Source: Flaccisagitta enflata (taxonomy: Eukaryota). From it: a DNA stretch of 64,000 nt. The notes under the pieces were generated by a model, which worked only from the letters and a program-made list of their open reading frames with translations, made no database searches and was not told the origin of the DNA. Every line of letters begins with the position of its first letter. Position 1 is the stretch's first letter. The stretch covers positions 13,330,001 through 13,394,000 of the forward strand of contig OZ231126.1 of the NCBI GenBank assembly GCA_965153355.1, read 5' to 3'. This document shows, piece after piece, positions 4,250 through 64,000 of this stretch. The position numbers were made by a program, and so were the translations under genes.

Positions 4250-4942
4250 AACAGGTCGCCCAAGGGCAATATGTGGTCAGTGATACCCGTTGCCCTGCTT
4301 TGAGTGATTGTGAATTGGAGTGAGGAGAAGCAGGGCAGCGGCCCCGAAGGGAACGAAGTCCTGTAGAACACAGGGGGACTTTTGTTTGTCCTACCTGAAG
4401 AAGTGGATGAGATGCTACAAAGGGCTGACTGAAGGTATTCAAGAGCCTAAACTGAGGTCTAAGAAGGCTGATATAAGGCCTGATCAGAATGCCAATTGGA
4501 AGCTTGAGAGGGCTGACTTGAGGCTTGAGAGAGCTGGATTAAGGCTTGAAAGGCAAGAGGACTGATTTGAAGCCAGGGAGCAATAAATTGAGATTTAGAT
4601 GGCTGATTTGAGGCCTGAGAGGCCTAATTTGAGGCATGAGAGGCCAGATTTGAGGCCTGAGAATTCGGATATGAGGCCTGAGAAGCCAGATTTGAGGCCT
4701 GAGAGGCCAGATTTGAGGCCTGAGAGGCCATGTTTGAGGCCTGAGAGGCCAGATTTGAGGCCTGAGAGGCCAGATTTGCTGCCTGGGAGGCTGGATTCGA
4801 GACCTGAGAGGCTGGATTTGAGGCCTGAGGGGTCTGATGAAGGGGGGGACTAACGGACGAACGAACGAACGAACGAACGGACAAACAAAAGTCCTCCTGT
4901 GTTCTACAGGACTTCGTCCCCTTCGGGGCCGCTGCCCAAAAA
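4250..4942 (+). mobile_element. Family-A element with an expanded 21-bp array (GAGGCCTGAGAGGCCAGATTT)
   Basis: Same ends as the other family-A copies. The array explains the DLRPERP / QIWPLRP heptad ORFs. Confidence 0.75.
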
Positions 4943-27908: not shown

Positions 27909-28482
27909 AACAGGTCGCCCAAGGGCAATATGTGGTCAGCGATACCCGTTGCCCTGCTTTGCATGGTTGTAAATCGGAATGAGAGGCAGGGCAGCGGCCC
28001 CGAAGGGGACGAAGTCCTGTAGAACACAGGGGACTTTCGTTCATTTGTCCGTCCGTTCGTTTGTCCGTCCGCCCCCCCCAGGCCCTCTCAGGCCTGAAAT
28101 CTGCCTGTCAGGCCTAAAATCTGCCCTCTCAGGCCTCAAATTTGCCCTCTCAGGCCTTATCTGAGAGGGCAGATTTCAGGCCTGAGAGGGCAGATCTAAA
28201 GCCTGACAGGCAGATTTTAGGCCTGAAAGGGCAAATCTCAGGCCTGAGAGGGCAGATTCAAGGCCTGAAAGGGCAGATTTCAGGCCTGAGAGGGCAAATT
28301 TCAGGCCTGAGAGGGCAGATTCAAGGCCTGAGAGGGCAGATTTCAGGCCTGAGGGGACAGATTTTAAGCCTGAGAGGGCCGGGGGGGGGGGGGATGAACG
28401 AACGAACGAACGGACGGACAAACAAACGAAAGTCCCCTGTGTTCTACAGGACTTCGTCCCCTTCGGGGCCGCTGCCCTAAAA
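27909..28482 (+). mobile_element. Family-A element, most complete copy
   Basis: AACAGGTCGCCCAAGGGCAATATGTGGTCAG... start; inverted repeats at about 27989-28041 and 28425-28477; GTCC/GAAC microsatellites; opposed 21-bp arrays meeting near 28160. Confidence 0.78.
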
Positions 28483-53620: not shown

Positions 53621-55208
53621 GGTTAAGTGTGTAACATTAAGATTATGTGTGTATCATCATATATGATGGTGGGGCATAATTGTTCATGTCTTAAAATGTT
53701 TGGTAGCGTCATGTTGAATGTGGTACAATGATTGGTTACATCAAAGTAGGGGACGATTGTTGATGTGGTACAAAAGTTGCTATCTTCAAAGTAGGGGATG
53801 ATTGTTGATGCTGTGGTAAATTTCTGTTTGTTGATATTCATCTCTCTTCTCTTTGGTCGGCTGTCCTCGGTTCCAGATTGAAGCCTTCGATAACAACAGA
53901 GTTCAGATCCTCCTTCAAGAATCGCAAAATCCAAATTCGGAAACCAATACTCAGCCAAATGTAATATGATTTAGTCTGATTTCACAAGTTATCGTCATGG
54001 AAAATTTAAACTTGGATAGTAGATGGGACAATAAAACTTTTTTTTCGTCCAAGAAAGAATGGCATCGGTGAAAAGTTTACTTTTTATGTCTAGTTTTAGA
54101 TAAAAAAAAGTTTGTGCCCTTTTTCCCAAATCTCCCTTCCCAGGAGCCCAAATAGTGAACCCCCCTTTTAGGGGGTTTGAGCCACCACCAGAAAAAGGCC
54201 AAATTCATGCTTTTTCACCTTGTTATTTTTATATCTTCTTTTTGGATTGATATAAAACCTTAAGATTGGTCTTGTTTGAAGGATATTTAGTAGTAGTATA
54301 TGTTATAATAAGAAATAGATGACAGTGGTCCCCAGGGGTCCCTCCAGGGGCCCCCAAATGGCCCCTAAAGGGGGAAAAATCAGAAAATCACCTATATAAT
54401 GAGCTTTTTTTTGCTTTTTCTCTTTCGAGATGTTAGAGATTTGTATTTTATGTAAATATACCCTCAACTAGTGATGGGGTGCACAAACAAAGCTTGGGAC
54501 CCCTCAGGGGGGCTCATTTGGGGGCCACAAAATAGGTAAAATGGCCAAAAATGACCAAAACTTGACATTTTTGAATTTTTTCAAAAATCTAAGCAAATCC
54601 AGGGCCGAAGAATCTGTTCAGACACTGTCATATAGTGCAGGAGAGCTACAAGTTAACAAAGGTTATGGCTTAAGACCCTTGAGGGGCCTTTCTGAAGGGC
54701 GCAAAGAACCCGAAATGGCAAAAATTATCAAAATCTTGAGTTTTTCTACATTTATTTGCTTCAAAGCTGATAGACGCGTTTATAACATCTGCACATTGTT
54801 AATAAAGTCATCCTTCCATTCATTCATTCACCCGGTCTTCCAGTTGTTGGTTTATTCATTCATTCATCCATTCATTCATTCGTTCACTTATACATTCAAT
54901 GTTTCACTGATTGATGAAAAATTGGCTGTTGCTCACACTTATAATCTCAGACTTGCAACTGGCACTGAACAAAAATTTGATACAGCTTTACAGTTTAACA
55001 GCTTTTTTTTTTGTTTTTTTTTATTTTTTTTTGTTTTGTTTTTGTTTTTTGTTTTTTTTTTTTGTTTTTTTTGTTTCTTTTTTTAACAATCTAACAGCAT
55101 AACCAAAAGGGAATAAAGGGACAAAAAAAAAAAAAAGAATGGGACGGAATGAAAAAGAAGTTAGGCGAGGATCAAACCCGTTCACTCAGCACTAACTTAA
55201 TTGGATGC

Positions 55209-55716
55209 CTACTCCAGTGCCTTGAAAAAGGATGCCTTCGTGTGACACCGACCAGAGTCCATTCTAGATAACAGCTTCTGTCTTATTAAGCCATCACGAG
55301 CTTCTTCCCCAATGACTGCTGATGCTCCCTCGCTTACTACCTTTATTCCACGTTCAACTGCTTGAGTGTGGCAAGGATATCGGAGCAGCTTGAGAGGGGT
55401 GAGAATGAAACCTCTTATTTCATCATCAGACAATTTCATCGTGAGTGGAGGCTCCAAAAATTTGGCAGTTTTCCAGTCAAAGAGCTCTGTGTAGTCATTT
55501 GCTTTGAAAATGAATTTGGGGATGACAAATTTTCGAATTGAAGTTGATTTGATCGCCATTTCTTCTTCAAAGCTTAAAGAAAGAAGAGTGAGTGGATCGA
55601 TCTTTTCTTTCTTTGACTTTTTGGACTTTTTCCCTCATCTTTTTTTTTCTTGTCTCTTTCCCACTGACCTGACAGCTGTTTTTTTTTCCTTTTTGATGTT
55701 GTGAACACAGTTAATC
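55209..55716 (-). pseudogene. C-terminal remnant of a hAT (hATm-like) DDE transposase
   Basis: ORF 55209-55559 reads RKFVIPKFIFKANDYTELFDW...EPPLT...YPCHTQAVERGIKVVSE...RDGLIRQ. PCHTQAVER matches the motif I recall around the catalytic Glu of hATm-type transposases. In-frame stop at 55635-55637; interrupted by an insertion at 55717; N-terminal part absent. Confidence 0.75.
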
Positions 55717-56197
55717 AACAGGTCGCCCAAGGGCAATATGTGGTCAGTGATACCCGTTGCCCTGCTTTGCACAATTTTGAATTGGAGTGAGAGAAAGCAG
55801 GGCAGCGGCCCCAAAGGGGTCGAAGTCCTGTACAACACAGGGGGACGTTTGTTCGTTCATTCGTCCATCCATCCATCCGTCTCCTTAGACACTCTCAGAC
55901 CTGAAATCTGCCCTATCAGGCCTGATATCCCCCCTTTCAGGCCTGAAATCTGCCCTCTCAGGCCTGAAATTGGCCCTCTCAAGCCTTGAATCTGCCTGAG
56001 AGGGTATATATAAGGCCTGAGAGTATAGATTGCAAACCTGAGGGCAATTCTTAGGCCTGAGAGGGCAGATTCAAGGCTTGAGAGGGCAGATTTCAGGACA
56101 GAGAAGGCAGAATACAGGCCTGAGAGGGCCTGGGGGGGACGGATGAACAGACGAACGAACGAATGAACAAAAGTCCCCCTGTGTTCTACAGGACTTC
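55717..56197 (+). mobile_element. Family-A element nested in the hAT transposase, right end truncated
   Basis: Same 5' end as the other copies. It stops at CAGGACTTC and lacks the final GTCCCCTTCGGGGCCGCTGCCCAAAA. Confidence 0.78.
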
Positions 56198-56229
56198 CTT
56201 GTCGACATTTTTACCTGAAAGAACGAGCT

Positions 56230-57034
56230 ATGGTCAGAGAATTTTGGTTGGCTGAGAAAGAAGCAGAAGCAAAGAAAAAGGTGGATGCAAAGTGGGGGGA
56301 AGATGAGGAGAAAAGAAAGCTGCCATCAGAAATCAAATTGTTTGATCCAAATAGCCCCCTATTTGATGTGTATTTGGCCATGGAAGAGAACTTTTGCTGC
56401 AAATTTGGTGTTGCACTTGCAATGACACCTCGTCAACAGCCAAAAACTAACTTGATCATGCTGAGTAAAAGGTTGGTTAAGCTGCTTCGATGGGATTTGC
56501 CTGCTTCCGAGATCCCATACAATCTGTATGATGGCTCTGCCTCATTGTGACCAGATACCTAAGAGCTGATGAGTCTGAAATCGAGATGGCCATTTCAGAT
56601 GGAAGCGAGAAACCAAGATTATGTCTCTTCCAGTTAGGCAATGAAGGGAGAGCGCAAGATATATGCACTTGGGACATGGGTTTCCAGTCCTCTCTCCCAC
56701 GGGGAACTGGCCAATTTCAAAAGTGTCAGTCGCATCTTACCCCATTCTTGTTCATGAAACTGCATCGGGTGAAAAAATCAAAGAATCAGGCTTCATTTTA
56801 TCCATGGATCGCTTTGGCGGAGTAAATCATATCAAAGGGTGCCGTGGAGGGAACCAAAATCAGGCAAATCACTTGGTAAAAATTTAAGCAAAAAACTTAG
56901 TTTTGGCCATTTACCTCAATTGGGAATTTTTTGAGAACAGGTTCACCGGCCTTGTTTTTGGTGCCGAAAAATGGATCAATGACGGCTGGGATGGAATAAT
57001 TCCTGAGAGCTTCCCGGAAATGGTGTCAATTTGA
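56230..57034 (+). pseudogene. Degenerate Tpt1/KptA-like gene (RNA 2'-phosphotransferase, ART fold) inside the transposon
   Basis: Joining frames gives, in order: LSKRLVKLLRWDL..DG / EIEMAISDGSEKPRL / ERKIYALG-GHGF / PILVHET..EKIKESGFILSMDRFGGVN / HLVKI*AKNL...WEFFENRFTGLVFG...WDGIIPESF. This is colinear with Tpt1 motifs LSK.LS..LRH, K.RF, IRA.QGHS, HGT..I...GL..M.R..VH and F..S.NGV.L...DG.IP..YF. It needs frameshifts near 56546, 56648 and 56672 and read-through of a stop at 56885-56887. Confidence 0.65.
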
Positions 57035-58147
57035 GAGTATTAGAATTTTCTCATTTTTTGAAAAAAAAAAAAAAAAAAACAAAAAACAAAAACTAAAAAC
57101 AAAAACAAAAACAAGAAAAGAAGCTGTTAAATCACCATTGCACATCATATTGGACAATGTCAAGTTGCAAGTCTTGTTTTAAGTGAGCAGGAGCTGCTTA
57201 TAAATCTATTGTTATCTAATCAATATTCAATAATGAACGAATGAATGAGTGAATGAGTGAATGAACAAATGATTGAATGAATGAATGAATGAATGCGTGA
57301 ATGAATGCATGAACAAATTAATCATTCTTTGAACAGTATGCAGGTTTGATGATTGAATGAACCGACATAAAAGCAAAAGACGTTAAAAACTCAAGTTTTG
57401 GTCATTTTTTTTGCCATTTTACCTATTTTGGGGCCCCTAAATGAGCCCCTCAAGGGGCCCCCAAGCTTTGTTTGTATACCCCACCACTAGATGAGGGTAA
57501 ATAAAATAAAAAATACAAATCTCCAACATCTTGAAAGAGAAAAAGCAAAAAAAAGCTCATTATTTAGGTGATTTTTCTGATTTTTTGCCCTTTGGGGGCC
57601 ATTTAGGGGCCCCTGGAGGGACCCCTTGTGGCCACTGTCATCTATTTATTATTATAAGATATACTACTACTAAATATCCTTCAAACAGGACTAATCCCAA
57701 GGTTTTATATCGATCCAAAAAGAAAATATAAAAAAAAAACAAGGTGAAAAAGCATGAATTTGGCCTTTTTCTGGTGGTGGCTCGAACCCCCTAAAAGGGG
57801 GGTCACTATATGGGCTCCTGGGAAGGGAGATTTGGGAAAAAGGGCACAAACTTTTTTTTATCTCAAACTAGACATAAAAAGTAAACTTTTCACCGATGCC
57901 ATTCTTTCTAGGACGAAAAAAAAGTTTTATTGTCCCATCTATTGGATAGTACCTGACTTGGTAATCCAGTTCTTTATCGTTTTCCGTTACTCATACACTC
58001 TTTGTCGCTAAGGCTGTTTGTCATACTGTCAATCTATCTCTCTGTGCTATCTAGCTGTCTGTCTCTGTCTGTCTCTTTGCCTCTCTATTTCTTTGCCTCT
58101 TTCACATGGTCTCTGCCTCAGTCTGTCTGTCCGTAATGCATTCTTCA

Positions 58148-61225: not shown

Positions 61226-63007
61226 AAGATCCTCTGAATACCAAAAGACTTAACGACTAGTTGACATTTCAAGAAACGAGCTGACGACACAACAACAACA
61301 ACAACAACAAAATAAAAAACAATAACAATAAAACAATAACAATAACATAAATAACAACAACAATAACAATAATAACAATAATAAATAATAAATAACAACA
61401 ATAACACAACAATAAATAACAAATAACACAATAACAACAACAACAACAGAACAACAATAATAACAATAAATAAATAAATAAAATAACAATAACAATAAAA
61501 CAACAATAACAACAACAATAACAAACAACAAAAATAACAACAACAACAAAACAATAAAATAATAAATAAATAAATTACAATAACAACAGCAAAAAACAAC
61601 AATAATAACAAAACAATAACAATAACAAAAATCAAATAAATAACGGTTTACAACAACAACAACAACAACAACAACAGCAACAGCAACAACAACAACAACA
61701 ACAACAACGGAGGGGGTCGTTGAGGAGAAAGAGACGCGTCAAAGAGAAGATAGATAGAAACCCGGACATTTCCTCTTATCTGGTTTTGGTTGGCAAATTA
61801 GCACATGAGTCTTCTTTTGGTCGTTTTTAGCCTCCAATCACTTCCTCTTCTTCTTCCGCTTCTTCTTCTTTTCCTACTTTTTTTTTTTGTTCTTCTTCTT
61901 CTTCTTCCTCTTTTTTTTCTTCATCTTCATCTTCATCTTCATCTTCATCTTCATCTTCATTTTCTTTTTCTTTTTCTTTTTCTTTTTCTTTTTCTTTTTC
62001 TTTTTCTGTTCCTTTTTCTTTTTCTTTTTTTTTTTTTTTTTTTTTTTTTTAGGGTCATCTTGATGGTTCCAAAGGTCAACGGTTTTATTCTCAACCAGGG
62101 TCAACCACCATCGGTTTCCTCTCTCTCTATCGACATGCTATGATAATTACCATACCTTGAACACTGACATGCTAAAATCACCTTTCTGGCTTATACACCG
62201 GCATGCTCTGGATCACCACTTTGCCTATTACTATGCCATGATCACTGAGATGCTGAAATCGACACTTTGCCATGAACTAATGACACGCTACATAAATAAC
62301 TACGCCATGACCACTTACATGATCACTACTATGCCACGAACAGCGCCTTGCCATGATCTCTGTTAAGCTATGATTACCAATATCACAACTTTCACCACTA
62401 AAAGGCGGATATTAAGTTGAGGATTTTAGCTGAATGCTAACACCACTGCTTGGCCAAAACAATCACCCTGCACTCATCAATCTTGCAAAAATCATCATCA
62501 TGCCTTCCCCACTTCCATGCTAGTAACTCCACCATGCTGCTAACTCTTCCTTGCAAAGAGGAGGAGGGGGGGAAATTGACAGTAAGGCAAGAGGTAGGTA
62601 AGGGGGCAGGGAAATCTTGCACGGCGGTTTGTTGTGTAAATGAAGCCAGAAAAAGAGACAAAAAAGCTTAGACGAATTTTCGATGACTAATCAAGAAATT
62701 TACGCCTTTGCTCGTGTTGTGTCCTCATTCTAACATTTCTTATCTTTTCTCTTTTAAAAGAAAAAAAGTTGCAAAAAAGAAGAAAAAAATAGTTGCAAAA
62801 AAAGAGGAAAAAAAAAACAGCTTTGATTTCAAAAGAAAGCAGACATAATTTAATCGAGACGGTGGCCAAAACCGATAAGATTTGCAATTCGCTTTTCCCT
62901 CGATGTCGTCTCATCTTTCACCCAAGTATGTCAAAATGTTATCACTTCCCCCTTCTTTTCTATCATACTTTCTCTTTTTCCTTCTTTTTCTTTCCTTCTT
63001 TCTTTCA

Positions 63008-63190
63008 TTTTTGGTCGCGTGCTACGCGACTCTACACCCCGCTTTGTCGGTCCGTCCGTCGGTCCGTCACACTTTTTCGGCGTTTTTAGGGTTTTTGGCC
63101 TAACTGCTCCGGCCCAAATGCTCTGGTGACCTCAAATATGGCCCTTGCCCACCCGCACGCGACTGGAGTAGCCGTGTATCCAGCCTTGTT
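63008..63190 (+). mobile_element. Family-B element, short
   Basis: TTTTTGGTCGCGTGCTACGCGACTCTACACCCCGCTTTGTC start; GCACGCGACT...CCTTGTT end. Confidence 0.7.
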
Positions 63191-63539
63191 TTTTTCATTC
63201 CTTCTTCCTCATTTTCTATCCTGTTTTTCTGCAGTTCATTCTCCTCCTCCAACCTCTTACCCCTGCTCGATTTCTCCTCCTTCTTCTCCTACTTCTTCTT
63301 CTTCCTCTTCTTCTTCCTTTTCCTCTTCTTCTTCTTCTTCTTCTTCTTCTTTTTCTTTTTCTTCTTCTTCTTCTTCTTCCCCTATCCCCATCACCGCCTC
63401 CATATTCTTCTTTTTTCTTCTCTTTTCCACTAAAAAGTTCTTCCTGACGATTCTTCGCGTCAGCAAAAAAATACGTGAGGTCTCACTTAAAAGGAGAGAA
63501 AAGAAAAGGATAACATCAACGATGACGGAAACCACGAAA

Positions 63540-63622
63540 GCGACAACAACAACAACAACAACAACAACGAGAACAACAACAACAACAGCAACACCAACAA
63601 CAACAACAACAACAACACCACC

Positions 63623-63696
<74 letters not shown>

Positions 63697-63718
63697 CTAC
63701 AACAACAACAAAAACAAT

Positions 63719-63782
<64 letters not shown>

Positions 63783-64000
63783 GCAACAGGAACAACCACA
63801 ACAATAACAACAAATAAACAAAACAATAACAACAATAACAATGACGACAATAAACAAAAACTGCAATAACAACAACAACAATGACAACAATAACAAGAAT
63901 ATAACAACAGTAACCAAAACAAAAACAACGACGACGACAACAACAAATAACAACAATAAATAAATAAATAAAATAAATAAATAACAACAATAAACAACAA
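63540..64000. repeat. (AAC)n / (AAT)n compound microsatellite; similar tract at 61290-61710
   Basis: Direct reading. Confidence 0.95.

Follow-up and report, generated by a model that had tools for sequence, protein, structure and literature searches.

What is a gene of the Tpt1 kind, with an altered active site, doing inside a transposon, and is the alteration a property of its family or the decay of a single copy? The question is raised by a stretch of 64,000 nucleotides from Flaccisagitta enflata (contig OZ231126.1 of assembly GCA_965153355.1, positions 13,330,001 to 13,394,000; the whole stretch is called the window here and is numbered from its first letter), in which the reading at 56440-57034 resembles Tpt1/KptA, enzymes whose canonical activity is the two-step removal of an internal RNA 2'-phosphate. 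The explanation that we favor, with a probability of about 0.6, is that 54020-57941 is an old, internally deleted, non-autonomous cut-and-paste DNA transposon, distantly hAT-like, whose second gene is a decayed copy of an uncatalogued and very divergent Tpt1/KptA family, consisting of a basic N-terminal region that resembles a nuclear localization signal and then both Tpt1 lobes, and with a predicted chemistry that would have been retuned. The Tpt1/KptA fold itself is known; what is new, as judged from sequence, is an uncatalogued variant family in which the His of the active-site tetrad is variable.

The Tpt1-like reading is real, yet the copy in the window is a pseudogene: its frame shifts three times and is interrupted by one in-frame TAA, and its N-terminus is truncated. 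With relatives designated by P numbers, its parts are as follows.

56200 to 56547, + strand: segment 1, frame 1, the N-terminal region in truncated form, then the RNA lobe's first helix, placed by tblastn of P0132, P0133, P0137, P0076 and P0148
56541 to 56648, + strand: segment 2, frame 0, LIVTRY...SEKPRL...QLGNEG, compared with intact P0132
56650 to 56673, + strand: segment 3, frame 1, ERKIYALG, where intact P0132 has KRKICALGGHGFPV
56669 to 56884, + strand: segment 4, frame 2, HGFPV...LVHET...SMDRFGGVNH...CRGGNQNQ, of the nicotinamide adenine dinucleotide (NAD+) lobe
56885 to 56887, + strand: in-frame TAA, where relatives have Gln (VKIQAKN)
56888 to 57034, + strand: segment 5, frame 2, AKNLVL...ENRFTGLVFG...MVSI, 86% identical to P0133 over 120 amino acids; coding 56888-57031, stop codon 57032-57034

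The frameshifts lie at about 56541-56547, at about 56648-56650 and, within a run of G, at about 56669-56675. A preliminary description of the locus had read LLRW, KPRL, HET and MDRF as the active-site pattern of a Tpt1, and all four are found where it placed them. LLRW ends LSKRLVKLLRW at 56461-56493 in segment 1, with its Arg at 56488-56490 and its Trp encoded by TGG at 56491-56493; KPRL (56610-56621) ends SEKPRL (56604-56621) and contains the Lys-x-Arg of the phosphate clamp at 56610-56618, the Arg being at 56616-56618; HET (56753-56761) belongs to LVHET (56747-56761), and MDRF (56804-56815, Arg at 56810-56812) to SMDRFGGVNH (56801-56830). Segment 4 holds the His-x-Thr, the fourth Arg of the tetrad and an Asn that replaces the second His of the ADP-ribosyltransferase (ART) triad. 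The motifs had been read as a single domain; they are present, but in three reading frames rather than one open frame, and the GGHG that was also reported does not exist literally in the window, where ..ALG is followed by a frameshift and HGFPV in the place of ALGGHGFPV of intact P0132 (GGHG itself is found in P0071 and P0131-P0133). The conserved Tyr-Arg of the family is gone in the window copy, which has GGNQNQ against GGYRNQ in relatives. Upstream, the N-terminal extension proposed for 56230-56440 is homologous to the N-terminal region of the family, but the family does not begin at the ATG of 56230; the frame continues open as far back as 56200, where the repeat at 55717-56197 interrupts it, and the N-terminus typical of the family (MAE..., a K/R-rich stretch, ...RVE.REKW) is not present upstream of 56200 in the window. 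Four sequence-distinct, unnamed relatives of 56645-57031 (P0134, P0070, P0072 and P0081) begin in the shifted frame of the window (MKGSARY...). The G-run frameshift is thus common to the window and these four; the gene is broken in more than one copy or genome, which suggests that elements already dead went on spreading.

With the gene in this state, its assignment to Tpt1 runs through relatives. None of the nine pieces and open reading frames (ORFs) of the window matched Pfam, even at E ≤ 10, and the pieces had no match among the PDB sequences. When the 129-amino-acid C-terminal reading, with an X at the TAA, was searched against 1.84 billion representatives, 61 proteins reached E ≤ 0.001, of which three are unrelated repeat proteins; the closest matches, P0071 (88%) and P0070 (81%), together with the cluster mates P0131-P0135, are near-copies of the window reading, and full-length members of the family have 256-365 amino acids. 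PF01885 was found in 11 of the 18 family members scanned at E ≤ 1, with nine of the 18 at or above the 26-bit gathering score; the best match was that of P0089 (E 1.8e-12, 48 bits), and P0071, the closest relative scanned, gave none. A profile of 19 members matched the Tpt1 of yeast (7yw4) with an E value of 2.9e-12 and the TRPT1 of mouse and of human with 0.028 and 0.18, and on the yeast protein it placed LLRw on LLRH, gKrr on DKQRF, AlGGH on ATQGH, lvHeT on LIHGT and samkR on SPMSR, so that the residues singled out in the preliminary description do occupy active-site positions. By chain numbering, the LLRw and samkR positions would be R23-H24 and R138 of yeast Tpt1. Aligned with hhalign to E. 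coli KptA (K-12 record), the family matched in the same register at E 1.6e-5, with its [VI]-N on V-H of KptA.

Structure prediction agrees with the profiles. An AlphaFold (AF2) model of P0137, whose identity to the reading of the window is 44-47%, was made from a 29-sequence alignment and has a mean predicted local distance difference test (pLDDT) score of 86.5; in a Foldseek search of the PDB its ranks 1-21 (19 rows listed) are all Tpt1, KptA or TRPT1. In 17 of the 19 rows the template-modeling score (TMt) is 0.62-0.74, with 0.40 and 0.43 in two rows of TkoKptA; 18 of the 19 have alignments of 206-223 columns, mostly across both lobes. The two-lobe Tpt1 fold, a winged-helix RNA lobe and an ART-type NAD+ lobe, is thus that of the P0137 model, not of the broken window gene. 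Identity of the model to solved structures of the fold is 15-23%, and to human and mouse TRPT1 19-20%, which fits the earlier judgment that the sequence is too divergent for a recent copy of the host TRPT1. The Tpt1 homology of the window reading, resting on these relatives, is far more than chance. In comparison with Tpt1/KptA/TRPT1 proteins (PF01885; yeast 7yw4, human 7yw3, Thermococcus KptA 9ld6 and Clostridium thermocellum 6ede), the family has both lobes, the motifs in the same order (LS[KR]..LR, K-x-R, GH, H-x-T, M-x-R, arch Arg) and three of the four tetrad residues. It differs in the tetrad His, which is W in the window clade and H, D or K elsewhere; in having GGH[GSF] for QGHS, H-[ENKRAG]-T for HGT and R-x-G-G-[VI]-N for R-x-x-V-H, the second triad His thus becoming Asn; in a conserved basic N-terminal region of about 90-190 amino acids; and in that its gene lies on a transposon.

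Whether the changed residues reflect constraint or decay was assessed in an alignment of 120 proteins matching the family hidden Markov model at E ≤ 1e-5; the counts below are per covered site, include near-duplicates and follow the numbering of P0137.

First Arg, R103: kept in 61 of 62
Lys, K147: kept in 73 of 73
Second Arg, R149: kept in 63 of 75
His of GGH, H171: kept in 82 of 96
His of H-x-T, H197: kept in 101 of 105
Thr of H-x-T, T199: kept in 100 of 105
Arg of M-x-R, R216: kept in 89 of 104
Asn221: kept in 99 of 104
Arch Arg, R231: kept in 85 of 103
Asn258: kept in 82 of 84

The tetrad His site contrasts with these: among the 61 proteins covering it, W occurs in 34, H in 24, D in two and K in one. 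In place of a full R-H-R-R tetrad, the window has the three Arg and a Trp for the His. The Gln/Tyr position before GHS in QGHS is Gly in 89 of 94 proteins, and of the H-H-h ART triad the first His is kept and the second is replaced by Asn (99 of 104 proteins, and the hhalign comparison with E. coli KptA). The change of HGT to HET, previously pointed out as an altered motif, is real but belongs to a family-wide H-x-T with a variable middle residue (E 81, N 9, R 7, K 4, A 2, G 1, D 1). When 78 fragments and 16 near-duplicates were dropped, leaving a non-redundant, domain-complete set of 26 of the 120 proteins, the 12 W-type proteins kept the functional residues as fully as the 10 H-type proteins. 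Since the other key residues are no less conserved in W-types than in H-types, Trp is a constrained trait of a subfamily and, on the evidence of the alignment, not decay of the window copy. The combination of W, H-E-T and GGH is common to the near-identical P0071, P0131, P0132 and P0135 and to lineages only 35-55% identical; the idea that other copies might restore LRH and HGT is not borne out by these four close copies. Of the two options offered in the preliminary description, an altered clade or a decaying copy, the first thus holds for Trp, H-E-T and GGH, which are traits of the family; the window copy is decayed nonetheless, and this had gone unseen.

The history of the site is less simple than a single ancestral replacement. 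H-E-T with M-x-R marks a derived clade and H-N-T with Q-x-R the basal H-type lineages. In a tree of the 26 rows, rooted on E. coli KptA alone, a long and unreliable outgroup (branch 4.63), all W, D and K forms are gathered in one supported clade (91/94), and the H-only lineages branch outside it. Within this clade, the H pair P0174/P0148 is nested in the window's own W subgroup with support 99/97, so that at least two exchanges between His and Trp have taken place, although none of the three bases is the same in CAY and TGG codons. The earlier reading of Trp as an ancestral difference is therefore right insofar as it is a clade trait, but not as a single event: His and Trp, as well as Asp and Lys, alternate. 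Recombination at the level of lobes was considered for the nested pair and rejected, as trees of the N-lobe and of the C-lobe both leave P0174/P0148 among W-type neighbors. Five positions upstream of the site, nine of the 10 H-types have Ser or Thr, and 10 of the 12 W-types have Val. This coupled change is in the first helix of the RNA lobe; the window has Val (56476-56478), and E. coli KptA has Ser with His. A short conversion tract between co-resident elements may have caused it.

The carrier of the Tpt1-like gene is a 3.9-kb cut-and-paste transposon (54020-57941), whose inverted ends are sharp and which is flanked by a target duplication of 8 bp, TTGGATAG.

54012 to 54019, no strand: left target-site duplication (TSD) TTGGATAG, the identical 8-mer directly adjoining both inverted termini
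54020 to 55089, no strand: left inverted arm, with a sharp start at TAGATGGGACAATAAAAC
55212 to 55634, − strand: transposase gene remnant, the C-terminal ~140 amino acids of a protein of ~800
55717 to 56197, no strand: palindromic repeat resembling a miniature inverted-repeat transposable element (MITE), self-complementary at 55822-56197
57055 to 57941, no strand: right inverted arm, from an A-rich tract just past the stop codon to the end ...GTTTTATTGTCCCATCTA
57942 to 57949, no strand: right TSD TTGGATAG, the same 8-mer as in the left flank

The termini of the element are TAGATGGGAC. Its outer arms pair at 91% over 558 nt (54020-54571 with 57385-57941), the similarity beginning at the first base, and the inner parts, 54808-55089 and 57055-57312, are more weakly complementary, about 70-88%. 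Termini matching from the first base, flanked by the same 8-mer, are the signature of a cut-and-paste insertion. The MITE-like repeat at 55717-56197 occupies the deletion junction, where the transposase gene lacks its 5' ~660 codons and the Tpt1-like gene its 5' end. At least four copies of the repeat occur in the window, the others being at 1831-2233, 4250-4937 and 27909-28478; it is ~400-500 bp long and has an internal array of 21-bp units (cctgaaatctgccctctcagg-like). The arm tracts next to the genes (57055-57120 and 55000-55089) are A-rich, or T-rich on the other strand, and interrupted by C or G; after them comes a microsatellite of the GAATGAATG type, at 57230-57320 and 54808-54915.

The transposase remnant has 69 longer relatives at E ≤ 0.001 and matches residues ~676-818 of proteins of 800-823 amino acids; those relatives that have names come from beetles, moths, a fly and a leech and are annotated as hypothetical proteins, and P0007 is the closest to the remnant, at 55%. 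In the N-terminal third of these ~800-residue proteins an invariant Cys/His cluster (..DICSCKC...C...C...H..C.C..) is seen, and by sequence they have the look of a transposase family of animals that is not yet catalogued. The family profile had no match among PDB sequences, and the leads to hAT come from folds. Hermes chains make up eight of the 10 best Foldseek rows for a transposase model (E 1.4e-3 to 4.9e-2, which is weak; best Hermes TMt 0.37-0.42), and an Atlas model of a transposase relative resembles RNase-H-like hAT/FAM200 proteins with template-modeling scores of 0.43/0.51. Together with the 8-bp duplication, these models point to a distant hAT-like element. Like hAT transposons such as Hermes, the element has an 8-bp TSD and terminal inverted repeats (TIRs), and the best PDB matches of the transposase model are Hermes chains; unlike them, it has very long inverted arms (~0.9-1.1 kb), and none of six relatives carries a Pfam domain. 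The start of the window TIR, TAGAT, fits only four of the five positions of the hAT consensus YARNG. We know of no hAT element with a second, enzyme-coding gene.

What could the second gene have done for such an element? In Tpt1, according to excerpts of PMC6333775 and PMC12170183, the first and second Arg of the tetrad and the Lys hold the 2'-phosphate and drive catalysis, whereas the tetrad His touches just the 3'-phosphate of the neighboring junction, its change to Ala in RslTpt1 slowing step 2 threefold only. In the complex with 5'-AMP, PMC12170183 describes, in the part that treats it, a 5'-phosphate held by Arg14, Lys60, Arg62, Tyr74 and Arg133 without the His, and an excerpt of PMC10415124 gives the H-H-V triad (His117-His142-Val187 in the yeast Sc enzyme) a role in NAD+ binding only. 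The His and Thr of HGT bind the adenosine ribose of NAD+ in the NAD+ lobe. The family has kept the NAD+ contacts (His-x-Thr, the Arg of M-x-R and the Tyr-Arg arch) and the phosphate clamp (the Arg of LR and Lys-x-Arg) and has given up the tetrad His (H/W/D/K) and the Gln/Tyr of QGHS (now Gly). By analogy, an intact family protein would still bind NAD+ and a nucleic-acid phosphate and might move ADP-ribose to a terminal monophosphate, capping the 5'-phosphate of DNA or RNA; internal tRNA 2'-phosphates would not be removed, and the protein, directed by its basic N-terminus, would act in the nucleus as an accessory of the transposon. Capping of 5'-phosphates with ADP-ribose is an activity of orthologues of Tpt1/TRPT1 (PMC12170183, which cites Munir 2018 and Munnur 2019, with the structure of PhoTpt1 with 5'-AMP). 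The residues that hold the 5'-phosphate there (first Arg, Lys, second Arg and arch Arg) are conserved in the family, and the His is not used; in contrast, the family has Gly in the place of Tyr74, and the capping proposed for it is a likeness in manner of working. That the family is, by this analogy, a nucleus-directed, NAD+-dependent ADP-ribosyltransferase acting on a terminal nucleic-acid phosphate is a tentative proposal, which we would put somewhat below even odds.

The alternative that survives best is that the W, D and K forms are pseudo-enzymes, which keep the fold and perhaps the binding of NAD+ or nucleic acid, transfer nothing, and serve the transposon in a binding or regulatory role. 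The His belongs to a tetrad that excerpts of PMC6333775 and PMC12170183 report as essential, and the alterations affect two phosphate contacts (the His itself, and Gln/Tyr, which is now Gly) as well as the second ART His, which is now Asn. A loss of chemistry would not, however, lead one to expect the three Arg, the Lys, the His-x-Thr, the arch Arg and Asn221 to be kept at 83-100% across lineages 28-55% identical, and H-type members with the full R-H-R-R tetrad exist in the same family, even within the W clade. We regard pseudo-enzymes as unlikely, if a serious contender. Rather less probable is that the canonical two-step removal of internal RNA 2'-phosphates persists and that Trp merely replaces a dispensable contact. 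The residues that hold the 2'-phosphate and serve both steps (first and second Arg, Lys and fourth Arg) are indeed kept, and the threefold cost of His to Ala in step 2 of RslTpt1 (PMC6333775, in the excerpt cited above) is small; against this, the His site has not stayed fixed but varies between H, W, D and K, and the Gln/Tyr contact to the 2'-phosphate is Gly throughout most of the family. The host, moreover, should possess a TRPT1 of its own. Tpt1 is not known to be required for tRNA splicing in animals.

Returning to the transposon-borne, retuned Tpt1 that we favor, several observations weigh against it. The linkage of the Tpt1-like gene to a transposase is seen in one decayed copy alone; metagenome loci of more distant transposase relatives, found with the transposase relative P0046, do not carry the gene (none of four loci), and no fusion of the two was found among longer proteins, which is weak evidence. 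The assignment to hAT is weak as well, as none of the six transposase relatives has a Pfam domain, hAT or other, and Foldseek rows 1-6, all Hermes, have E values of 1.4e-3 to 1.4e-2 for a model with a pLDDT of 72. The Gly at Tyr74, the contact to the 5'-phosphate in the AMP complex, implies that the 5'-phosphate mode is altered too, and the ENA contigs may be DNA and so give no proof of expression. In its favor, sampled words of 56200-57060 were found in marine metagenome runs and in four metatranscriptome runs (shares 0.24-0.39); some of these words occur in 20 of the 24 runs listed (11 studies), none of which has half or more of them, and the small shares of runs X17-X20 are no evidence. One further hint of linkage is a longest contig of 4087 nt that is given both for P0175, which is Tpt1-like, and for P0007, the transposase relative; with P0156 as query, no related locus was found in metagenome contigs. 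None of the 25 matches of the family profile is a member named by NCBI or UniRef. The lack of the gene in other transposase loci and of named members would follow from a lineage-specific acquisition, as fits cargo, and this is what the gene looks like; the family is apparently carried by a hAT-like transposon. The same absences, with the dead window copy and the single linkage, could be turned toward a passively captured (transduplicated) fragment of a host gene, or a host multigene family beside transposon debris, but this is very improbable for a gene that lies within the TIR/TSD boundaries, has many intact ORFs of 256-365 amino acids with a conserved N-terminal region, conserved catalytic residues and deep divergence, and shares its G-run frameshift among the distinct copies P0134, P0070 and P0072, as expected of a repeated mobile unit.

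As to the source of the captured gene, viral and cellular proteins match equally well and favor neither origin: viral Tpt1-like proteins in BFVD match the model like cellular TRPT1 (best E 5.5e-9 versus 8.9e-9). Those of Neodiprion sertifer nucleopolyhedrovirus, Hyperionvirus and Bodo saltans virus have the same fold (E 5.5e-9 to 8.3e-6), yet are 13-19% identical, with nothing to place them nearer than cellular TRPT1; they do tell us that mobile or selfish genomes of eukaryotes carry Tpt1-fold enzymes. A paper on a transposon-borne eukaryotic Tpt1, or on this family, was not found in the open-access literature searched.

For the window alone, a dead copy, the result is modest, and the greater interest lies at the level of the family. 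It would be a natural experiment, in which a family on a selfish element has kept the NAD+ site and the phosphate clamp while freely exchanging the one tetrad residue that reads the neighboring 3'-phosphate, and its paired natural H-type and W-type proteins would make it directly testable what else the Tpt1 fold can do in animals. Among hAT-like elements, it would be unusual to find a conserved second gene that modifies nucleic acids. Taken to its furthest, the proposal is that a hAT-like lineage of marine animals recruited a Tpt1-derived enzyme and retuned it from removal of internal 2'-phosphates to ADP-ribose capping of 5'-phosphates, its targets being either the element's own excised DNA ends, shielded from end-processing by the host, or small-RNA precursors with a 5'-monophosphate, blocked from loading into Argonaute/PIWI. 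We consider this a long shot; if true, the capping of small-RNA precursors would be a transposon-encoded counter-silencing enzyme at work, and the switching among His, Trp, Asp and Lys at the former 3'-phosphate contact would represent retuning of the substrate or an arms race.

As to the surroundings of the transposon, no clear host protein-coding gene was seen among the ORFs of at least 130 amino acids in the window. The DNA is eukaryotic, with a GC content of 41% and an extreme load of microsatellites, including (CT)n, (CA)n, (GAA)n and runs coding for poly-D and poly-K, and long arrays with a period of 9-12 bp lie near 61800-63860.

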